A DNA stretch of 64,000 nt from NCBI GenBank assembly GCA_963783885.1, contig CAWAPJ010000001.1, positions 112,764-176,763 on the forward strand, written 5' to 3'. The notes beneath the pieces are model-generated. The model worked only from the letters and a program-made list of their open reading frames with translations, made no database searches and had not been told where the DNA came from. The translations under genes and the position numbers were made by a program. The stretch's first letter is position 1. Each line of letters starts with the position of its first letter. Below are positions 9,925-62,435 of the stretch, piece after piece. The DNA comes from Waddliaceae bacterium. Lineage in GTDB: Bacteria > Chlamydiota > Chlamydiia > Chlamydiales > SLFE01.

Positions 9925-12900
9925 ATGGAACGTCCTCGCAAAAATGAATCTAAAGAAATCGTTTGTCCTTCCTGCGGCTCCCACTTCTTCTTGTCGGGAG
10001 ATAAAAAAGCACATCCCGCATTTTGCACCTACTGCGGCCATACTTTGGACCAGTCGAGAGACCAGGAAACCACCCTGGAGGAAATTTCTTTTGTTCAAAA
10101 ACATATCCCCGATGAAGAGTCAGTGCAGTTCAGCATCGGGTCTTATCAAATTCTAAAAAGAATCGGCAAAGGCGGAATGGGCGAAGTCTTTCTCGCCTAC
10201 GACACCGAATGCGGCAGAAGAATTGCTTTGAAACGTATCCGTACGGATTTAAAAAACAGAAAACAGCTGCTTCAGCGCTTCCTGAAAGAAGCGCGCATCA
10301 CAGCCCAGCTCACCCACCCGTCGATTATTCCTATTTATACCATCCACGAAGATGGACAAAATATCTATTATACCATGCCCTTTGTGGAAGGAGAGACGCT
10401 CAGGGAAATCATTAATAAAGCCAGAAAACTGGAAAAAAAAGGAGAGAAATCCGAAAGCGCCGGAACGTCGATCCCCTCGCTGGCGCGCATTCTCGTCAAT
10501 GTTTGCCAAGCGATCTCCTATGCACACTCACATGGGGTTCTTCACAGGGATATCAAGGGAGAAAATATCATTGTCGGAAAATTCGGAGAAGTCATGATTC
10601 TGGATTGGGGCCTGGCAAAAATTGTGAAGTCTCCTCCTGAGGATGAAGTTTTTGAAGAAGAAAAGCCGACATCGCCCGATATCACTGCCATAGGGAAAGT
10701 TGTTGGTACAATTTCCTATATGGCGCCTGAAAGGGCGAGAGGCAATCCCGCAACGACTCTAACCGACATCTATGCTTTGGGCGTACTCCTCTTTGTTATC
10801 CTCACACTTCGGCATCCCTTTAAACGAGGCAATCTCGAAGAATTTCGAAAAACCATGGTCAACGAAGTGTTCAAGGATCCCGCAGAAATCGCCCCTTACA
10901 GGGACGTCCCCCAACTCCTGGGGCAAATTAGCAGAAAATGTTTGTCGGTTAATCCCGAAGAGAGATATCAAACCGTAGACGAACTGATACACGATCTGGA
11001 AAACTATATTGAAGGGCGCTCGGAATGGTTCGAAGTTTGCCAGCTCGATATTCTTCAGAAAGACGATTGGCAGTTTCAAGAACATGTCCTAATGGCAGAG
11101 CAGATGGCGATCACAAGGACACCCGAGTCTTCGCAATGGGTCACTTTGATGATTTCCGAAAAGTCTTTTGCGGAAAACATACGAATAGACGCCAGGGTCA
11201 AGATTTACTCCGACGGACATGGAATCGGTTTTTTGCTGAGTATACCCGAAACTTCAGAAAGGCGGCATTTAAATGACGGGTATTGCCTTTGGCTGGGTAC
11301 GGAAGATCATAAGGCGACCAAACTTCTGAGGTCGACAGTCGAGGTTCTTCACACGCCCGACATCTTTCTCGAAAGCGGCGTTTGGCACCGGATACGCATT
11401 GAAAAAATTGACCATAACATCTATTTTTATCTCAACAAAGCTCTTCAATTTTCCTATATCAGCCATATTCCCTTAACGGGTACCCACGTCGGATTGATCT
11501 GCAGAGACACAAACTTCGACCTGGAATCATTTTCAGTGTCGCTCGGAAGCCAAAGCGTTATGGTCAACTGCCTCACGGTGCCCGACGCATTTTTAGCCCA
11601 CAAGTATTATGATATAGCGCTGAGCGAATACCGAAGAATCGGCTATACCTTTCCCGGACGGCAGGAAGGACGAGAAGCCATGTTCCGGGCGGGGATCACT
11701 CTTCTCGAACAAGGCCGCTATCAAAGCGAATTGAAAAAATCTCAGGAATTCTACGACCTGGCTCTTCAGGAATTCGAAAAGCTTCACCGAACCCCGGGAG
11801 CTCCCCTCGAATATTTAGGCAAAGCTCTTGTTTATAAAACACTACAAGACATATCCGAAGAAGTTAAATGCTACATGCTAGCTTATAGAAGGTATCCGAA
11901 ACACCCTCTTCTTTCCGTGCTTGACGAGCAGGTTGCCTACCGGATGCACGAATGTTCCCGATATCATCGCCATGCCACTTATGAACTTGTCCTTCTTGTA
12001 AATCGGCATATCCCGACTGTTCAGAAAACCCCGCATACACAAAAACTTATCGAAACGCTGCAGAGGCACTGGGAAACGCTTCCCTTCATTCAAAACGATC
12101 CTTGCGGCGCACACGTTAGCAAAGTCAGCAATATCTCTTTTAGCCTTCTCCTAAGTTTTTGGCTGGCCAAACCGCTATTCATCGAAGAGTTGATCGATTC
12201 CCTCATCAAACTCGACAACATTTATCCCATCACATTTTTTAACGCCCTTTACTGCATCCTTGAGCTTGGGGCGGCAGACCTAGTCAGCGAGCTGTTTGCC
12301 AAAACATTGGAAACACGTCCTGAAGACGAGAGCAAATTTTTAATTAAAGCCTTCACTCCCTTTGCCTTCGCTGTCAAAGCCGAAAGAGCCCCCATACAAG
12401 AGGTCCTGGAAGATTTTCTGATCTCCCTCAAGCGGGAGATCAACTTTAATGAAATGCGCATCCTCATTTATTTAATCGAAAAGGCACTTTCCGAAGAAAA
12501 AACCTCCCTAGTCTATGAAGCACTCGATCGACTGAATATCACGCAGCTGGAAACAAAGCAGCGGCTGAGGCTCGACTATTACCGCATCTGGGCGCTTTTG
12601 ATCGATAAGAGATGGAGCGAAGCGGGAAAAGTATTTGAGAGGTACCCTCTTGAATATATCGGAGAGGAAAAAAGCGCCTTTCACTTTCTCTACGGATGCT
12701 GGCTTTATGTCACTGAGGGACCTGAAATTGCCAAAGCCCATTTTTCAGGGGTTCTGGAAGTTTCCTTTCCCAGAAGCTGGACACTGGCCACACACTACAT
12801 CAACGAAAGGTTCTACGACGGACACCGCTGGTTTCAGCAGGCCTTTATGTGGGAAAAACGGCAGCTTTACAGACAGCTGTCGCTCTATTACCACTGCCGA

Positions 12901-12966
12901 GGCGACCAGCAAAAGAAAGATCTTTATCAAGAACTGGCAAAAAAACAGGTGATCAATGCAGATTAA
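9925..12966 (+). CDS. pknD: Ser/Thr protein kinase, chlamydial PknD type, with N-terminal CxxC...CxxC zinc ribbon
   Basis: IGKGGMGEV, ALK, HRDIKGEN, DWGLAK and YMAPE motifs; long C-terminal region. Confidence 0.85.
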   Translation: MERPRKNESKEIVCPSCGSHFFLSGDKKAHPAFCTYCGHTLDQSRDQETTLEEISFVQKHIPDEESVQFSIGSYQILKRIGKGGMGEVFLAYDTECGRRIALKRIRTDLKNRKQLLQRFLKEARITAQLTHPSIIPIYTIHEDGQNIYYTMPFVEGETLREIINKARKLEKKGEKSESAGTSIPSLARILVNVCQAISYAHSHGVLHRDIKGENIIVGKFGEVMILDWGLAKIVKSPPEDEVFEEEKPTSPDITAIGKVVGTISYMAPERARGNPATTLTDIYALGVLLFVILTLRHPFKRGNLEEFRKTMVNEVFKDPAEIAPYRDVPQLLGQISRKCLSVNPEERYQTVDELIHDLENYIEGRSEWFEVCQLDILQKDDWQFQEHVLMAEQMAITRTPESSQWVTLMISEKSFAENIRIDARVKIYSDGHGIGFLLSIPETSERRHLNDGYCLWLGTEDHKATKLLRSTVEVLHTPDIFLESGVWHRIRIEKIDHNIYFYLNKALQFSYISHIPLTGTHVGLICRDTNFDLESFSVSLGSQSVMVNCLTVPDAFLAHKYYDIALSEYRRIGYTFPGRQEGREAMFRAGITLLEQGRYQSELKKSQEFYDLALQEFEKLHRTPGAPLEYLGKALVYKTLQDISEEVKCYMLAYRRYPKHPLLSVLDEQVAYRMHECSRYHRHATYELVLLVNRHIPTVQKTPHTQKLIETLQRHWETLPFIQNDPCGAHVSKVSNISFSLLLSFWLAKPLFIEELIDSLIKLDNIYPITFFNALYCILELGAADLVSELFAKTLETRPEDESKFLIKAFTPFAFAVKAERAPIQEVLEDFLISLKREINFNEMRILIYLIEKALSEEKTSLVYEALDRLNITQLETKQRLRLDYYRIWALLIDKRWSEAGKVFERYPLEYIGEEKSAFHFLYGCWLYVTEGPEIAKAHFSGVLEVSFPRSWTLATHYINERFYDGHRWFQQAFMWEKRQLYRQLSLYYHCRGDQQKKDLYQELAKKQVINAD

Positions 12967-13483
12967 AACATTGAATAGCAACATTATCCTCGATGAGTTT
13001 CTCAAAGTCAAAAAAGAACATCTTCGTTTCCCAAACGGTTATGAGCACAACCACTACACCCTTACACTGCCTGCGAAAACATCAGTTTCAATCGTACCCG
13101 TCACAGAAGATGGGCAGCTAATCATCAACGAAGAGTACCGGCACCCCGCCGGGGGAAGAGTTCTCAGCCTTCCCGGCGGTTTTCTTCATGAAAATGAATC
13201 GCCCAAAGAAGGAGGCAGACGTGAGCTGCTTGAAGAAACGGGCTTTGAGGCAAAGAATTTTAAGGAACTGGGTCGATCATTCCCTATGCCGGGCATCTGC
13301 GACCAAAAAGTGATCTATGTTCTCGCTGAAAACTGCCGAAAAACACGCCAGCCCGAGCTTGAGGGGGGAGAGATTATACAAACGTTTACATTCTCGCTTG
13401 AAGAGCTCAGGGATAAAATCAGGCAAGGCGCCGCAGTCGACGGCATCCTTCTTACCGGCCTGTGCTTTTATCAGATGGGGTAG
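12956..13483 (+). CDS. NUDIX hydrolase (ADP-ribose pyrophosphatase-like)
   Basis: Nudix box GFLHENESPKEGGRRELLEETGF. Confidence 0.9.
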   Translation: MQIKTLNSNIILDEFLKVKKEHLRFPNGYEHNHYTLTLPAKTSVSIVPVTEDGQLIINEEYRHPAGGRVLSLPGGFLHENESPKEGGRRELLEETGFEAKNFKELGRSFPMPGICDQKVIYVLAENCRKTRQPELEGGEIIQTFTFSLEELRDKIRQGAAVDGILLTGLCFYQMG

Positions 13484-14997
13484 GCCGCTTTAAGCGCCTC
13501 CTGCCTTTTTTTAAATTCATTTTTAATCGCATCGCATCGTTTTATATCTCCGCGCTTCTTAGCAGCCATAAACTCATTTTTGATAAATCCCATGACAGGA
13601 ACCGGAGGAATTTTGCTGTTTCTTAACTGTTTTTGATATTTCTCTTTAGTGTCGATTATGCTATTAAATGCCTTGCTCAATTCCTTCTTTTGCAAAAGTT
13701 GATTCAAACACATTGCAATCTCAAAATTTTTTACTCTGATAGACTCATTGAACAAAGCGATGAGATTGTCCATGAGATTTTTTCGTTGTTTTATCTTTTT
13801 TGTTTCCAAGATCTCTTGATGCAAAACCTGATAAAGGCTATCAGCAAGCCGATCGATATTACGGGACACGAATTTTTCTATACAATTTGCATGCCACCCT
13901 GCCATGATTTCTGTCACTTCATGGACTCTTAATTTTCTTATAAGCATTCGGCGATCTACGTTTTCGGATAGGCCTGCTTCGCCCGCGCTGCGGTCTCCAG
14001 GAACGTATATCAGCGAACGCTTACATTTTCTTTTTTTCAAGTCTGAAACTTTGGGGGATTTCATCTTATCAATTCGCAATATTAATTGCCTTATGTAGCC
14101 CAATCTTTCACACAGAAGATCAGAAGATGAAGTTAAAACAAATATTTTCTGAATATAAACTCTTAACTGATATAAAAGGACGAATGTATTGTTGATATTA
14201 CTTTTCCATATCTTATCAATCACCATTGTGTGATCAGGGTCTATGACAAATGAACATTGAAAATACCGATTGTTTTCTAGACAATGCTCCAAATAAGAAT
14301 GCATTAATTCCCTTGTTACGACAATATTATGATCCAACAGGCTGATCTGGGGATCTTTGATGTCAGGACCTTGTAGAGTTTCATTAAAAAAAATGCGACG
14401 GCATAAATTTTTATATATATCAGGATATTTGTTTTTCAGAGAATTATAAGTCCTCTTGATTAACAATTGGTATATTTCTTCATCCGACAAATCAGGTTTT
14501 TTTTCCCACAATATCTTCATGATAATGAAATGACACAGTTGGACTGAGCGATAGGATCTTAGACAAGGCTTTAAATCTTCGGATAATTGTTCCAAAGTAT
14601 ATTTGACATTGTTCAAGACGATAGAGTTGTATTCAGATTGCAATTGATTTCTAAATTTCTCCGATTTTGATATTAATTGAAAATAGAAGATTCCCGAAAA
14701 TTTCCAATTATACTCAAATCCAAATTTAGAAAATTTTGTTGCGACATCCAGATCCGACCAACTGGCAGGTTTCAGTTGAATCACTTTTTGAAGAATATTT
14801 GTGACTGTAGACAAATTCCTGTTTTTTTCAATGCAACCAATCTGATAAAGGTCTTTTAAACACTCTTCCGCAATGTTGTCAATTTTGGGGCTTTTTTCAA
14901 TCTGCCGATTGACATATCCTAGAGAAAACTCTACTGGATCCGAACCTTCTTTATAATCCGGATATAACGTTCTCCAGTTATTCTGATAAATTATCAT
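13471..14997 (-). CDS. Hypothetical protein with C-terminal RasGEF/CDC25-like region; candidate effector
   Basis: EILETKKIKQRKNLMDNLIALFNESIRVKNFEIAMCLNQLL and YQKQLRNSKIPPVPVMGFIKNEF resemble CDC25 conserved regions; AT-rich sequence. Confidence 0.55.
   Translation of the reverse strand: MIIYQNNWRTLYPDYKEGSDPVEFSLGYVNRQIEKSPKIDNIAEECLKDLYQIGCIEKNRNLSTVTNILQKVIQLKPASWSDLDVATKFSKFGFEYNWKFSGIFYFQLISKSEKFRNQLQSEYNSIVLNNVKYTLEQLSEDLKPCLRSYRSVQLCHFIIMKILWEKKPDLSDEEIYQLLIKRTYNSLKNKYPDIYKNLCRRIFFNETLQGPDIKDPQISLLDHNIVVTRELMHSYLEHCLENNRYFQCSFVIDPDHTMVIDKIWKSNINNTFVLLYQLRVYIQKIFVLTSSSDLLCERLGYIRQLILRIDKMKSPKVSDLKKRKCKRSLIYVPGDRSAGEAGLSENVDRRMLIRKLRVHEVTEIMAGWHANCIEKFVSRNIDRLADSLYQVLHQEILETKKIKQRKNLMDNLIALFNESIRVKNFEIAMCLNQLLQKKELSKAFNSIIDTKEKYQKQLRNSKIPPVPVMGFIKNEFMAAKKRGDIKRCDAIKNEFKKRQEALKAAYPI
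13940..14024. mobile_element. MITE-like palindromic element (family A) inserted in frame in a CDS
   Basis: ATAAGCATTCGGCGATCTACGTT...AACGTATATCAGCGAACGCTTAC, flanked by direct repeat ATTTTCTT (13932-13939, 14025-14032). Confidence 0.85.
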
Positions 14998-15107: not shown

Positions 15108-18100
15108 TTACTTTTTGGAGTTAACCGGTTCGACAGACTCGAAGTCGAAGACAAGGTCTTCGGCTTCGGCAGAATCAATAGACGCATATGTTCGCTTATG
15201 CTCATCGAATCCGGTTCCGGCAGGGATAGTGTGTCCCATAATGATGTTCTCTTTGAAACCTCGCAGATAGTCCTTTTTCCCTGAAAATGCAGCTTCGGTA
15301 AGGATACGGGTTGTATCCTGGAAAGAAGCAGCTGAAATAAAGGATTCGGTACTCAAAGACGACTTAGTGATTCCGAGAAGAAGTGGAGCCGCCTGTGATG
15401 CTTTGCCGCCTTCTGCCGTCACCTTCTCGTTTTCGGTCTCAAACTGCTTCTTGTCAACTTCCTCGCCGAACAGAAGGCTTGTATCGCCGGGATCGACTAC
15501 GCGCACCTTTTTCAGCATTTGCCGAACTACGATCTCAATGTGTTTGTCGTTAATATCGACACCCTGCAGGCGGTAAACTTCCTGCACCTGATTGACCAGA
15601 TATTTCTGAAGTTCGCGCACTCCGCATACCTCCAAAATCTCATGGGGAATGACCGATCCGTCGGTAAGCTGCTGTCCTTTAACTACATGATCGCCACGTT
15701 GAACAATCAAGTGTTTTGTATGAGGAATCAGATGCTCTTCCTGCATGCCCGATACTTCATCGCGAACGATGACAAGACGCTTATTTTTGTGCACACCGAA
15801 ATCCACGATTCCATCGATTTTAGCAATCTCGGCAGCATCTTTAGGCTTGCGCGCCTCAAGAAGTTCGGCAACGCGGGGCAGCCCCCCCGTGATGTCCTTC
15901 GTCTTCATCGCTCCTCTCGGCAGACGGGCCAGCAGTGTTCCGGCTGAAGCGAAATTGTTTTCTTCGACGGAGATAATCGCCCCGCTTGGGATCGGATAGG
16001 TTCCGACCAGTTCCTTGAAATCCTTGTCGGAATAAATCGCGATTTGCGGGTGAAGCTCGCCGCGGTGCTGCTTGACAATCAACTCCACCTGGCCTGTTTG
16101 CTTATTCGTCACACGCTCGGTGGAAATCCCTTCAACGAGATCCTCATACTTCGCGTAGCCCGGCCTGTCGCAAATAATCGGGATATTGTGCTGTTCCCAC
16201 TCCCCGATTTTTTGCCCTTTCTTGACTACGGCTGCGTCCTCGACAAATATTCTAGTACCCAGTTCGATGTTGATTGTTTGCAGCGCTTCGATGGATTTGG
16301 TGCTGAGAAGCTGTTTGTATTCCTCAAGCTTCCTACCTTCATCCCTGACGATATTGAGGGTACCGTTTTTGTTAAGAACTACCCAGTTGCCTTCGTCATT
16401 TTGAACGGTCCTTAAGTCGGTGTAGATGACAACGCCATCGCTCTCAGTCACCAACTCGGGACTGATGCTTGCAGAAGCAATACCCCCGATGTGGAACGTT
16501 CTCATCGTCAGCTGTGTACCCGGCTCTCCAATCGACTGGGCCGCTATGATGCCTATTGCCTCGCCCAGGCTGACCTTTCGGCCATTAGCCAGGTTAACGC
16601 CGTAGCAAGTCGCACAAACGCCCCATTTAGTTTCGCAAGTGAGGACTGAGCGGACTTTGACTGTATCGATACCGGCGTCGTCGATTCTCTCCGCCTGTTC
16701 AAGGGTGAGGACATCTCCCGCTTTGGCAAGAAGCTTTGACTTGTCGCCGGGCTGGTAGATATCTTCGCACACGGCACGGCCGAAGATACGGTCTTTGATC
16801 GGCAATAATTCTTCCTGCCCCTGCTTGATCGCCGAAACCTCGATTCCATTCAGCGTGCCGCAATCTTCTTCGGTCACAATGACGTCAAGAGAGACATCGA
16901 CAAGCCTTCTTGTCAGGTAGCCGGAGTCGGCTGTTTTGAGAGCGGTATCTGAAAGCCCTTTTCTCGCTCCGTGAGACGAGGTGAAGTACTGCCCGGGCGT
17001 TAAACCTTCGCGAAAGTTGGTTTTAATCGGATATTCGATAATTTCACCGGAAGGTTTGGCCATCAGGCCCCTCAGGCCGCCGAGCTGCTTAATTTGAGAT
17101 TTGGTACCCCGCGCTCCGGAGTCGAGCATCATAAACAACGAGTTGAGTTGTTCATTTTCAATTTTGGAGATCATATCGAAAAGGATTTCCGAAATCTTTT
17201 CTGTCACTTCGGTCCAAATGTTGATTACTTTCGATTTTCTCTCCCCGTCGGTAATGATACCGTCGTCATATTGCTTCTTGACAGAGCTCACTTGTTTTTC
17301 GGCCTGTTCAAGAAGCTTTTTCTTTGCTTCGGGAACTTTGATATCGCTGATACCGATTGAAATTCCCGACTTTGTCGCTTCGTAGAATCCAATACTTTTT
17401 AAGTTGTCTAGAAACCGAACGGTTTTTTCAAGGCCGACTCTTTTGTAACATTGGAGGACAAGTTCTCCAAGCCTCTTTTTGGGAAGCTGGTAGTTTTGAA
17501 ATCCAAGTTCGTCGGGTACAATTGTATTGAAAATCACCCGCCCCGGCGTAGTTTCGATGATGCCGACTCTTGTCCTGAGCTTAATCTTCTCATGGAGTCT
17601 CAGACCCCGGCCTAGATTATCCGTACGTCCCTTTTCTCCTTCTTGGTGTTTTTCGTCGAACCAGTTGTAGCTCCCTGACGAATTCAACGCGAGCAGAACT
17701 TCCCGATTGTCTCTGAAAACTTTGACCGGCTTCCCGTAATCCTCAGGATTATAAATGGGATCGTGCATCAAATAGTACAGACCGAGAGCCATATCCTGAC
17801 TCGGAACGGCGGAGGGCTTGCCCGATGAAGGGAGGAATATATTGTCCGGCGCCATCATCAGCATGCGTGCTTCGATTTGCGCTTCTACCGAAAGAGGCAC
17901 ATAGACTGCCATCTGGTCACCGTCGAAGTCGGCGTTGAATGCCGAGCAGACGAGCGGATGGACGCGTATTGCCTTTCCTTCAATGAGGATCGGCTCAAAT
18001 GCCTGGATACCCAGACGGTGGAGTGTTGGCGCGCGGTTTAAGAGAACCGGGTGATGCTGAATGATCTTTTCCAGCACGTCCCAAACTTCCGGGTCATGCC

Positions 18101-19295
18101 TCTGGATCATCTTTTTTGCCGATTTTATGGTATAGACATACCCCAGATCCTTGAGCTCTTTGACAATGAATGGTTCAAACAGCTCAAGAGCCATCAATTT
18201 AGGAAGGCCGCACTGATTAAATTTCAATTCAGGGCCGACAATAATAACGGAACGGCCGGAATAATCGACACGTTTACCCAATAGATTCTGTCTGAAACGG
18301 CCGGATTTACCCTTTAGCATTTCAGAAAGCGATTTAAGCGGACGGTTGCCGGCGCCCATTACCGGGTGGCCGTGACGACCGTTGTCAAAAAGAGCATCGA
18401 CAGCTTCCTGAAGCATCCGTTTTTCGTTTCTGACAATGACTTCGGGAGTTTTGAGTTTGAGTATCTGCTTTAAGCGGTTGTTTCGGTTGATAACCCGGCG
18501 ATAAAGATCATTCAAGTCCGATGTCGCAAAACGCCCGCCATCAAGGGGAACAAGAGGACGGAGGTCCGGAGGTATCACCGGAATTGCGGACATCACCATC
18601 CATTGGGGTTTATTCTCGGAGCTCATAAAGCTCTCTACAATCTTAAGCCGCTTGGCTATCTTCATCCGTCCCTGTTGAGACTTTGTCTTCCTTAATTTTT
18701 CCTTAAGCTCATTAAGAATGATAGAAAGGTCTTCCGATTGAAGGAGATCCTGAATTGCTTCACCGCCCATTTTAGCGACAAAAGCACCGCGTCCCCACTT
18801 TTCCTGCGCTTCGCGGAATTCGACATCGTCAAGAAGCTGTTTTTTTTCAAGATCCGTTTCTCCCGGATCTGTCACAACCCACTCTTCATAATAAATGATT
18901 CTTTCAAGATCGCCAGCAGTCATACCTAAAAGATTGCCTATGCGGGAGGGCATTGTTTTGAAAAACCAGATATGAACAATAGGCACTGCCAGGTCTATGT
19001 GCGCCATCCTTTCCCGGCGCACTTTGGACAATGTCACCTCGACACCGCAGCGATCGCACACGATTCCTTTATGTTTAATCTTTTTGTATTTGCCGCAAGC
19101 ACACTCCCAGTCCCTGGTAGGCCCGAAAATCTTCTCGCAAAAGAGTCCGCCTTTTTCAGGTTTGAAAGTACGATAGTTGATCGTTTCAGGTTTTTTTATT
19201 TCGCCCCGAGACCATTCATTGCAAATGACTTCGTCTGAAGCGAGCTGAATCGTCAAACTATCAAAATGTTGCTGCTGCTGTGTTTCTTCGGCCAT
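15108..19295 (-). CDS. rpoC: RNA polymerase beta' subunit
   Basis: NADFDGD catalytic motif, zinc finger; 1395 aa. Confidence 0.99.
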
Positions 19296-23090: not shown

Positions 23091-23389
23091 CCTGAAGGGC
23101 TCCCTCTTAAGTGATTTATTTTACTGAAAATGTTAGGCGCGAAATAACATAAGCATTCAGTGATCTGCGTCTGCAGAGAACGCTGATATATTTTCAAATT
23201 GGTTTTAGTAAAGAACATCAAAAAACGTAAATGCCTTGATAATCACAGACGCTTGCCATGTGAAAGTATCATTTATGTGCAACCCAGCTAAATTTTTATA
23301 GCATTTTAACAAAAAAGTCAAGAAATTCTCTTAACAGTAACACCTTTTTTCCATTTAGCGGGTGCTTTTCGAACAATTTGTATAAAAAC

Positions 23390-42987: not shown

Positions 42988-43121
42988 GTAAGTGCTCGGC
43001 GATCCAGGTACTCCCGCTGAGATCACAGAGAAATTTGAGAATAATGGGCAATATGTTACGAAAATATGTGTGTAGTCTGTGGTGAAAATCTCAGCGAGAA
43101 CGTAGATCGCCGAATGTTTAC
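42988..43121. mobile_element. MITE-like palindromic element (family A) right after the accC stop
   Basis: GTAAGTGCTCGGCGATC...GTAGATCGCCGAATGTTTAC; direct repeat TTTACTCG at 42980-42987 and 43123-43130. Confidence 0.8.
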
Positions 43122-62332: not shown

Positions 62333-62435
62333 GAAAGTGTTCGCTGATCTACGTCCCTAAAGAACGAAGCGCGGGCGCCTTGCAGCTCTTCGCCCGCGCT
62401 GCGTTTTCCAGGAACGTATATCACCGAATGCTTAC
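62333..62435. repeat. Palindromic element (family A) downstream of proX
   Basis: GAAAGTGTTCGCTGATCTACGT...AGCGCGGGCG..CGCCCGCGCT...AACGTATATCACCGAATGCTTAC; right arm nearly identical to 13977-14024. Confidence 0.85.

Follow-up and report, generated by a model that had tools for sequence, protein, structure and literature searches.

A miniature inverted-repeat element with IS66-like ends inserted in frame in a RasGEF-like gene of a Waddliaceae bacterium

Short palindromic repeats that become part of coding sequence are known from Rickettsia, whose palindromic elements (RPEs) run from RPE-1 to RPE-10 (summary in PMC10969869 of Ogata et al. 2000, 2002). According to that summary, almost half of the RPEs of R. 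conorii lie in open reading frames (ORFs), each with a conserved encoded peptide. In excerpt, the same 2024 review calls in-frame fusions by intragenic miniature transposable elements that carry inverted repeats (MITEs) 'not unusual' and treats RPEs as the extreme case. The mechanism is not new, as in-frame MITE insertions are known from Rickettsia, enterobacteria, and Coxiella. Here we analyse an instance in a 64,000-nucleotide stretch of DNA from a Waddliaceae bacterium (hereafter the window; C1:112764-176763 of the assembly studied, G000, which comprises 2.16 Mb in 46 contigs and is 88.9% complete at 44.8% G+C). Within positions 13932-14032, an 85-bp imperfect palindrome interrupts a gene for a RasGEF-like protein and is read through in frame, adding 31 codons.

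The locus resembles RPEs in being a palindromic repeat (RPEs are ~100-150 bp) of an obligate intracellular bacterium, read through in frame, whose peptide falls at a structurally tolerant place. Two further systems invite comparison. The excerpted account of QMITE1 and QMITE2 of Coxiella burnetii (PMC5896051) describes an intracellular host, QMITE2 duplications of 7-11 nt, ORFs with an occasional in-frame insertion, whether central or at the 3' end, and insertion sequences (ISs) placed into or against MITEs, as are two IS66 copies in a congener of our bacterium. By the same account, the partner there is IS1111 and the insertions affect genes of known function at their 3' ends, whereas ours is internal and lies at a domain boundary. 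MITEPsy1 in hopX1/avrPphE of Pseudomonas syringae is likewise a small MITE that created a new allele of a host-interaction gene (PMC3189936, in extract). However, its 100 nt and 4-nt duplication shift the frame and alter the 3' end, whereas here the frame is kept and an internal segment gained; effector status is reported as demonstrated there and is inferred only for our RasGEF-like protein. A literature search, judged by title and the start of the abstract, returned no paper on chlamydial MITEs and none on Waddliaceae repeats.

The insertion and its empty sites

The palindrome is bordered on either side by the 8-bp direct repeat ATTTTCTT, the two copies starting 93 nt apart. Its inverted arms (13941-13962 and 14002-14023) are 22 nt each and 82% complementary. 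RNA of the coding strand folds into a single long hairpin of -34.5 kcal/mol (z = -3.5), a stability reached by 1 of 200 shuffles. At 55.3% G+C, the element contrasts with the remainder of the host gene (33.7%) and with the window as a whole (45%). Its right arm is 91.8% identical across 49 nt to an intergenic sequence at 62333-62435.

To locate orthologs, the host protein was searched against 41 genomes, namely G000 and 40 relatives. Matches outside G000 were confined to two genomes of the same genus, G001 and G002. Alignment with the G001 ortholog, between DLKKRK and LRFHEV, revealed a gap of exactly 31 residues (93 nt), and the target AAGAAAGT is present there once. The segment is also absent from the G002 ortholog, which aligns with a 30-column gap and is an intact 495-residue ORF directly after rpoC, as in G000. 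The G001 ortholog (contig C4) is fragmented, with at least four frame changes and internal stops, and is either a pseudogene or affected by indel errors of a five-contig long-read assembly. The segment is missing from all seven homologues that were aligned to the host protein. These alignments confirm an in-frame insertion specific to this lineage, which would have taken place after its split from the two sampled congeners. Deletion in the relatives was ruled out by the inverted ends, the duplication, membership of a repeat family (below), and the seven segment-free homologues.

The filled site was also present in public contigs. One from a soil-metagenome run (X3) covers positions 13858-14125, element included, with no differences. 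Another, from a salt-marsh run of a different study (X4), covers 13893-14049, again with no differences, and extends just 25 letters past the element, where the threshold for a bridge was 31. These contigs, from runs of two studies, ruled out an assembly artefact. No contig joining the empty site was found in four public runs (three studies); contigs of such runs omit rare variants, and one run is possibly the source of the assembly.

A preliminary description of the window, made from its letters, had reported the palindrome, its 8-bp repeat, the 93 bp read as 31 in-frame codons, the near-match at 62333-62435, and the high G+C of the element. All were reproduced, and the 31-residue gap that it anticipated in orthologs was exact in G001 and of 30 columns in G002.

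A repeat family with IS66-like ends

The element belongs to a dispersed family. A fuzzy search with the 22-nt terminus (up to five mismatches) located 43 termini in G000, and the inverted ends of the family are 22 nt long and start with GTAAGCATTCGG. Of 16 end pairs, seven, including the in-gene copy, are flanked by perfect 8-bp duplications and four by duplications with one mismatch; in the remaining five the flanks differ at 2, 3, 4, 6, and 6 positions. By chance, a perfect duplication would be expected at ~1.7e-5 per element. A family profile made from nine copies of 147-160 bp and searched with nhmmer matched ~30 loci in G000. Thirteen of these cover practically the whole 160-nt model and the others are truncated or internally deleted. 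Copies measure 63-160 bp, with one of 326 bp, and are too small for a transposase ORF.

In the congener G001 there are 18 family loci. Exact 12-mers of the GTAAGCATTCGG type numbered 18 in G000, 9 in G001, 0 in G002, and 1 each in G003 and G004, while a reversed control gave 0 throughout. Filled and empty sites contrast in both directions: the host gene is filled in G000 and empty in G001 and G002, and a hydrolase gene described below is filled in G001 and empty in G000. With short, transposase-less, dispersed copies, inverted ends, 8-bp duplications, and filled and empty sites, the family has the sequence characteristics by which bacterial MITEs would be recognised. One apparent 1.1-kb composite (C25:12670-13758) was rejected as such; it consists of two separate copies, and its flanking 8-mers mismatch at six positions.

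The seven perfect duplications have a mean G+C of 27%, compared with 44.8% for the genome (P ~0.007, resampling), which points to a probable preference of the family for A+T-rich targets. The target in the host gene consists of consecutive codons for lysine and arginine.

The in-gene copy is a shrunken member of the family. It retains positions 1-31 and 113-160 of the ~160-bp model, joined by an 11-nt junction that is matched in no other copy, and the central 75 nt (25 codons) are gone. On the + strand its first base is A, where nearly all other family termini have G. As the terminal G appears to have mutated, this copy has probably lost its capacity for mobilisation.

Related copies suggest how the loss might have come about. 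The full copy C28:29871-30030 contains CTTCGCCCGC, a 10-mer, twice (positions 53 and 113, exactly 60 nt apart), and deletion between the two yields the junction ...CTGCTTCGCCCGCGCTGCG... observed in the host gene. Copies of 147/148 bp similarly lack exactly 13 nt between two CTGCTTCG repeats. A 60-nt deletion between direct repeats combined with a 15-nt deletion is plausible as the most economical path, and the absence of the same junction from every other copy hints that deletion happened in place.

IS66 inverted repeats begin with GTAAGCG, and 8-bp direct repeats are characteristic of the family, according to the portion of PMC11946415 available. The MITE ends start with GTAAGC(G/A) and are accompanied by 8-bp duplications, matching both features. 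The single PF03050 match in G000 belongs to one IS66 element of 2338 bp, with a DDE_Tnp_IS66 gene, a TnpB-like gene, and a small upstream ORF. This resident IS66, found in G000 and G001, also generates 8-bp duplications; its mobilisation of the MITE is possible but unsupported by end similarity, as G000's one IS66 diverges from the MITE ends past GTAAGC. The MITE further differs from such ISs in size (85-160 bp without a transposase versus ~2.3-2.6 kb).

We scanned one genome per species with a 21-nt degenerate motif based on the MITE end, which located 12 loci. Five lie in a metagenome-assembled genome (MAG) of a same-genus Waddliaceae bacterium and two in a Prolixibacteraceae MAG. The latter contains a complete 2633-bp IS with three ORFs (an HTH-type TnpA-like protein, TnpB_IS66, and a 552-residue DDE_Tnp_IS66 transposase) and a perfect 8-bp duplication, GTTTGAAA. 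One of its ends matches 21 of the 22 positions of the MITE terminus. Its second end is identical over the first 14 nt and then diverges, agreeing with the terminus at 18 of 22. G003, a genome from another genus within the family of our bacterium, encodes a transposase 87% identical to this one on its 3.2-kb contig C138, which carries an IS that is 83% identical in DNA; the ends of this IS begin with GTAAGCATTCGG, and their first 12 nt are identical. Its presence in both a Prolixibacteraceae (Bacteroidota) MAG and G003:C138 would reflect either cross-phylum transfer or a binning error. As judged from ends, duplications, and a complete IS that shares the terminus, a family-level link between the MITE and IS66 is well supported. 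A literature search found no description of an IS66-derived MITE within the library covered.

Two copies of the resident IS66 in G001 abut a MITE end to end, one a full 160-bp copy (L041:3001-3183) and the other a 44-nt fragment (L049:3001-3067). No duplication surrounds either of them, and two other IS66 copies of G001 have clean 8-bp duplications. IS66 may insert into or beside MITE ends.

The earlier reading of the element as a MITE agrees with its inverted ends, duplication, many copies, and empty sites, and further copies with flanking duplications were indeed present. Its chlamydial origin is likewise upheld, the same-genus relative being a Waddliaceae bacterium. The suggestion that an IS66-type transposase mobilised it held in part: the ends and duplication fit, and an autonomous IS with GTAAGCATTCGG ends occurs elsewhere, but none was found in G000.

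Reading frame and host protein

The host ORF continues uninterrupted through the element. A full copy with its duplication measures 160+8 = 168 nt, or 56 codons, and the in-gene copy 85+8 = 93 nt, or 31 codons. The orientation and frame used in the host gene are stop-free in all five 160-bp copies, while the other five frames of full copies mostly meet stops within the first few codons. Each full element has one or two stop-free frames of six. Simple arithmetic for 53 codons at 58% G+C gives a chance of ~0.15 per frame, so the observed number is near chance and the family element does not look as if built for coding.

Genic positions were correspondingly rare. Of the 30 loci in G000, the one in the host gene is the only copy flanked by long coding stretches (327 and 155 codons). 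The sole mid-gene case among the 18 loci of G001 has a footprint of 147 nt and a decayed right end, and interrupts a gene for a 443-residue alpha/beta hydrolase (C4). This insertion lies just before the nucleophile-elbow region and has the same orientation and frame as in the host gene, so that both mid-gene copies use the only frame stop-free in all five 160-bp copies. No insertion is present at this position in the G000 ortholog of the hydrolase (C12:57769-58944). These patterns fit random insertion followed by purifying selection that would keep stop-free, frame-preserving hits at tolerant places. They do not fit a specialisation like that suggested for RPEs, from which the family differs in the scarcity of mid-gene copies, the near-chance number of stop-free frames, and its clear inverted ends, 8-bp duplications, and identifiable IS family; RPEs were compared by description only.

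Other copies in G000 touch coding sequence at its margins. At C2:122246-122405, a full-length copy takes the place of the final residues encoded by a 218-codon frame, an in-frame 3' fusion that supplies ~54 element-encoded residues before the stop. Another copy is inside a small ORF of 153 codons, and a third is just upstream of an aldo/keto-reductase-like start.

Against the Pfam RasGEF profile (PF00617) the host protein scored 17.8 bits at residues 380-459, under the cut-off of 23.1. An 834-residue paralogue and four other family members exceeded the cut-off (5 of 5 tested: P0003, P0004, P0005, P0007, and P0008). The G002 ortholog had no Pfam match, and neither the host protein nor the paralogue matched NCBIfam. 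A profile of the family matched the solved Cdc25-homology domains of Epac2, RalGPS1, RasGRP2, SOS1, and Cdc25 (E 1.3e-7 to 1e-4). Neighbours in the ESM Atlas lean to Cdc25-homology as well, as a lead only.

The family is small, with 10 members among 1.84 billion representative proteins by profile search; a word-indexed search with the host protein returned only itself from 6261 candidates. RasGEF matches were present in all six genomes of this chlamydial family and in none of 14 control genomes. G000 itself has four further matches above the cut-off (C1:74538-75083, C17:45306-45779, C2:108439-108885, and C28:8937-9380), an expansion of RasGEF genes.

The insert occupies residues 325-355, at the N-terminal edge of the RasGEF domain, where by alignment I364 corresponds to profile positions 9-13. 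The site is a lysine-rich linker whose length varies among aligned family members, and the inserted residues are themselves hydrophilic and basic (isoelectric point 9.8). The ratio of nonsynonymous to synonymous substitution rates (dN/dS) between the host gene and the G001 fragment is ~0.35, and 0.33 downstream of the insert. These ratios indicate that the host gene, including its part downstream of the insert, was probably under purifying selection in the past.

The preliminary description had regarded the host protein as a candidate effector and the element as an RPE-like remodeller of effectors. The first proposal is plausible, as the lineage is obligately intracellular and the family has a domain of eukaryote type; the protein may be secreted and active. 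A literature search returned one paper for RasGEF in chlamydiae, whose main text lacks the term, and none containing it for bacterial effectors. The second proposal is contradicted as a general habit by the scarcity of mid-gene copies, and the G001 case affects an alpha/beta hydrolase rather than an effector. An RPE-like coding role also finds little support in the near-chance stop-free frames and in an in-gene copy that is a shrunken derivative without the central 75 nt.

Competing explanations and related elements

Our data make it probable that an IS66-type MITE inserted immediately upstream of the RasGEF-like domain, in a linker that is A+T-rich and rich in lysine codons, and that its 31 residues are a tolerated passenger. 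An IS66-family DDE transposase, acting in trans, would have bound the element's ends and cut an A+T-rich target with an 8-bp stagger. The insertion presumably survived because it landed in the sole orientation and frame without stops in the full element and because its footprint (168 nt) was a whole number of codons. A domain-boundary position of variable length in the family would have aided survival. Loss of 75 nt after insertion, by the deletions proposed above, would then have left 93 nt. The inserted loop is most likely such a passenger and not a new functional module.

Several points weigh against this account. No autonomous IS with the MITE ends was found in G000 (88.9% complete, 46 contigs), and the ends of its resident IS66 (GTAAGCGTCATTTAAG...) have just GTAAGC in common with the MITE. 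The flanks of G003:C138 match nothing in four other genomes of the family, and its binning is uncertain. For the shrinkage, a split of 28 + 47 nt is equal in mismatches, owing to an internal 8-nt repeat, so that the total of 75 nt alone is certain; the deletions may have preceded or followed insertion. The host gene is presumed to be transcribed and its protein to fold. The split G001 ortholog may mean a gene lineage prone to decay, or long-read indel errors. The analyses are compatible with a passenger and with a useful loop.

The possibility that the 31 residues were recruited, as a longer or recharged linker or an interaction motif that alters RasGEF-like action in the host cell, appears quite unlikely. 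The peptide is merely one stop-free frame of a selfish element, and a search with the family's 52-residue peptide from a full-length copy found no match >91 residues in a collection of 5.8 billion sequences, a weak negative. The insert's place at the entrance to the catalytic domain, an ORF kept open, and trimming of the element by whole codons (75 nt) would all suit recruitment; in-frame MITE fusions possibly contribute to protein evolution, as stated in excerpts of PMC10969869. Yet the insert is present in a single lineage, so that conservation of its sequence is not measurable. That contigs from four runs of three studies contained the filled allele alone is also in keeping with recruitment, but fixation is not established by contigs that omit rare variants.

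We consider it unlikely that the host gene was already decaying and that the insertion was one step of pseudogenisation in a dispensable, fast-evolving paralogue, without effect on a protein. The 1527-nt frame is entirely open at 34% G+C, the G002 ortholog is intact and syntenic, and the dN/dS ratios argue for purifying selection downstream of the insert too. Decay would be in agreement with the broken G001 ortholog, but stray stops also occur in IS copies of that five-contig assembly, suggesting sequencing indels. It would also accommodate the sub-threshold RasGEF score, the lack of a Pfam match in the G002 ortholog, the tiny family, and the four other RasGEF genes of G000 above the cut-off. 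A role at the level of nucleic acid, in which the hairpin serves as an RNase site, translational pause, or internal terminator uncoupling the N-terminal from the RasGEF part, is highly improbable. The hairpin is stable, and Coxiella MITEs yield small RNAs and affect adjacent genes, according to the extract of PMC5896051. However, it has no trailing U-run, family copies have no Rfam match, and the conserved core hairpin of the family is gone from the in-gene copy.

The insertion is a well-documented example from nature of a protein made longer by selfish DNA, in which filled and empty alleles, the family, a likely transposase family, and a plausible path of shrinkage are all visible. It shows how a preference for A+T-rich targets can steer insertions to lysine-rich linkers tolerant of extra residues. 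The genes altered by in-frame MITEs thereby come to include one for a eukaryote-like RasGEF protein, from a chlamydia of Waddliaceae type. The features of the locus, and of related elements, are collected in Table 1.

Table 1. Positions of the inserted element, its host gene, and related elements (window coordinates unless a locus is named)
Feature	Position	Strand	Basis or remark
Internally deleted MITE copy, 85 bp	13940..14024		inverted ends, family profile
Left 8-bp target-site duplication, ATTTTCTT	13932..13939		single AAGAAAGT on coding strand at the congener's empty site
Right 8-bp target-site duplication, ATTTTCTT	14025..14032		direct repeat
31 added codons, host residues 325-355 (element and one duplication copy)	13933..14025	-	ORF translation, ortholog gap
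Host gene, 508 residues, small chlamydial RasGEF (Cdc25-homology) family	13471..14997	-	directly downstream of rpoC, as is the G002 ortholog
C-terminal RasGEF-like region, residues 356-508	13474..13932	-	RasGEF profile positions 9-13 align with I364
Intergenic 103-bp derivative, model positions 97-160 and an inverted end	62333..62435		flanking 8-mers differ at 4 positions
134-bp element with family inverted ends	42988..43121		both flanks read TTTACTCG with a one-base offset; one of the six-mismatch pairs
Solo terminal fragment, 35 nt	23150..23184		terminus search, profile
Three-ORF IS66-family element	L040:3001-5633 and L043:389-3021 (Prolixibacteraceae MAG); L052:318-2949 (G003:C138)		DNA 83% identical

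The 134-bp element combines the family ends with an unrelated, A+T-rich interior (44% G+C), and so carries a different passenger between the same ends. MITE copies also lie at three contig termini of G000 (C7:2-46, C12:95756-95779, and C40:2-137), where the repeat family breaks the assembly. More copies, or an autonomous element, may have been left unassembled in G000.

Of 200 genomes scored, 10 others of the order contain sequences that are 75-90% identical to the ~55 nt at the centre of the full-length MITE. There, these core copies sit inside palindromes of 158-170 bp whose terminal sequences are of at least five unrelated kinds. The core, which the in-gene copy lacks, is predicted to form a hairpin with compensatory changes at 5 of 15 pairs. 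Seven of ten delineated core-carrying elements have no stop-free frame at all. Six loci with family copies or the core gave no Rfam match at E <=0.1.

It is conceivable, if doubtful, that the ~160-bp palindromic MITEs of environmental chlamydiae form a modular superfamily, with a shared, conserved and structured core hairpin of ~55 nt and swapped outer arms that parasitise different transposase families (IS66-type here, other types of end elsewhere). Through whole-codon footprints and a stop-free frame, such elements would repeatedly extend chlamydial proteins by new loops, eukaryote-like proteins of host interaction among them. If true, an RPE-like process would have arisen a second time, independently and outside Rickettsia.

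The neighbourhood of the host gene includes a 1013-residue protein with a eukaryote-type Ser/Thr kinase domain (9925-12966, + strand), a NUDIX hydrolase (12956-13483, + strand), and rpoC (15108-19295, - strand). The G+C of the host gene (33.7%) is far below that of the genome (44.8%).

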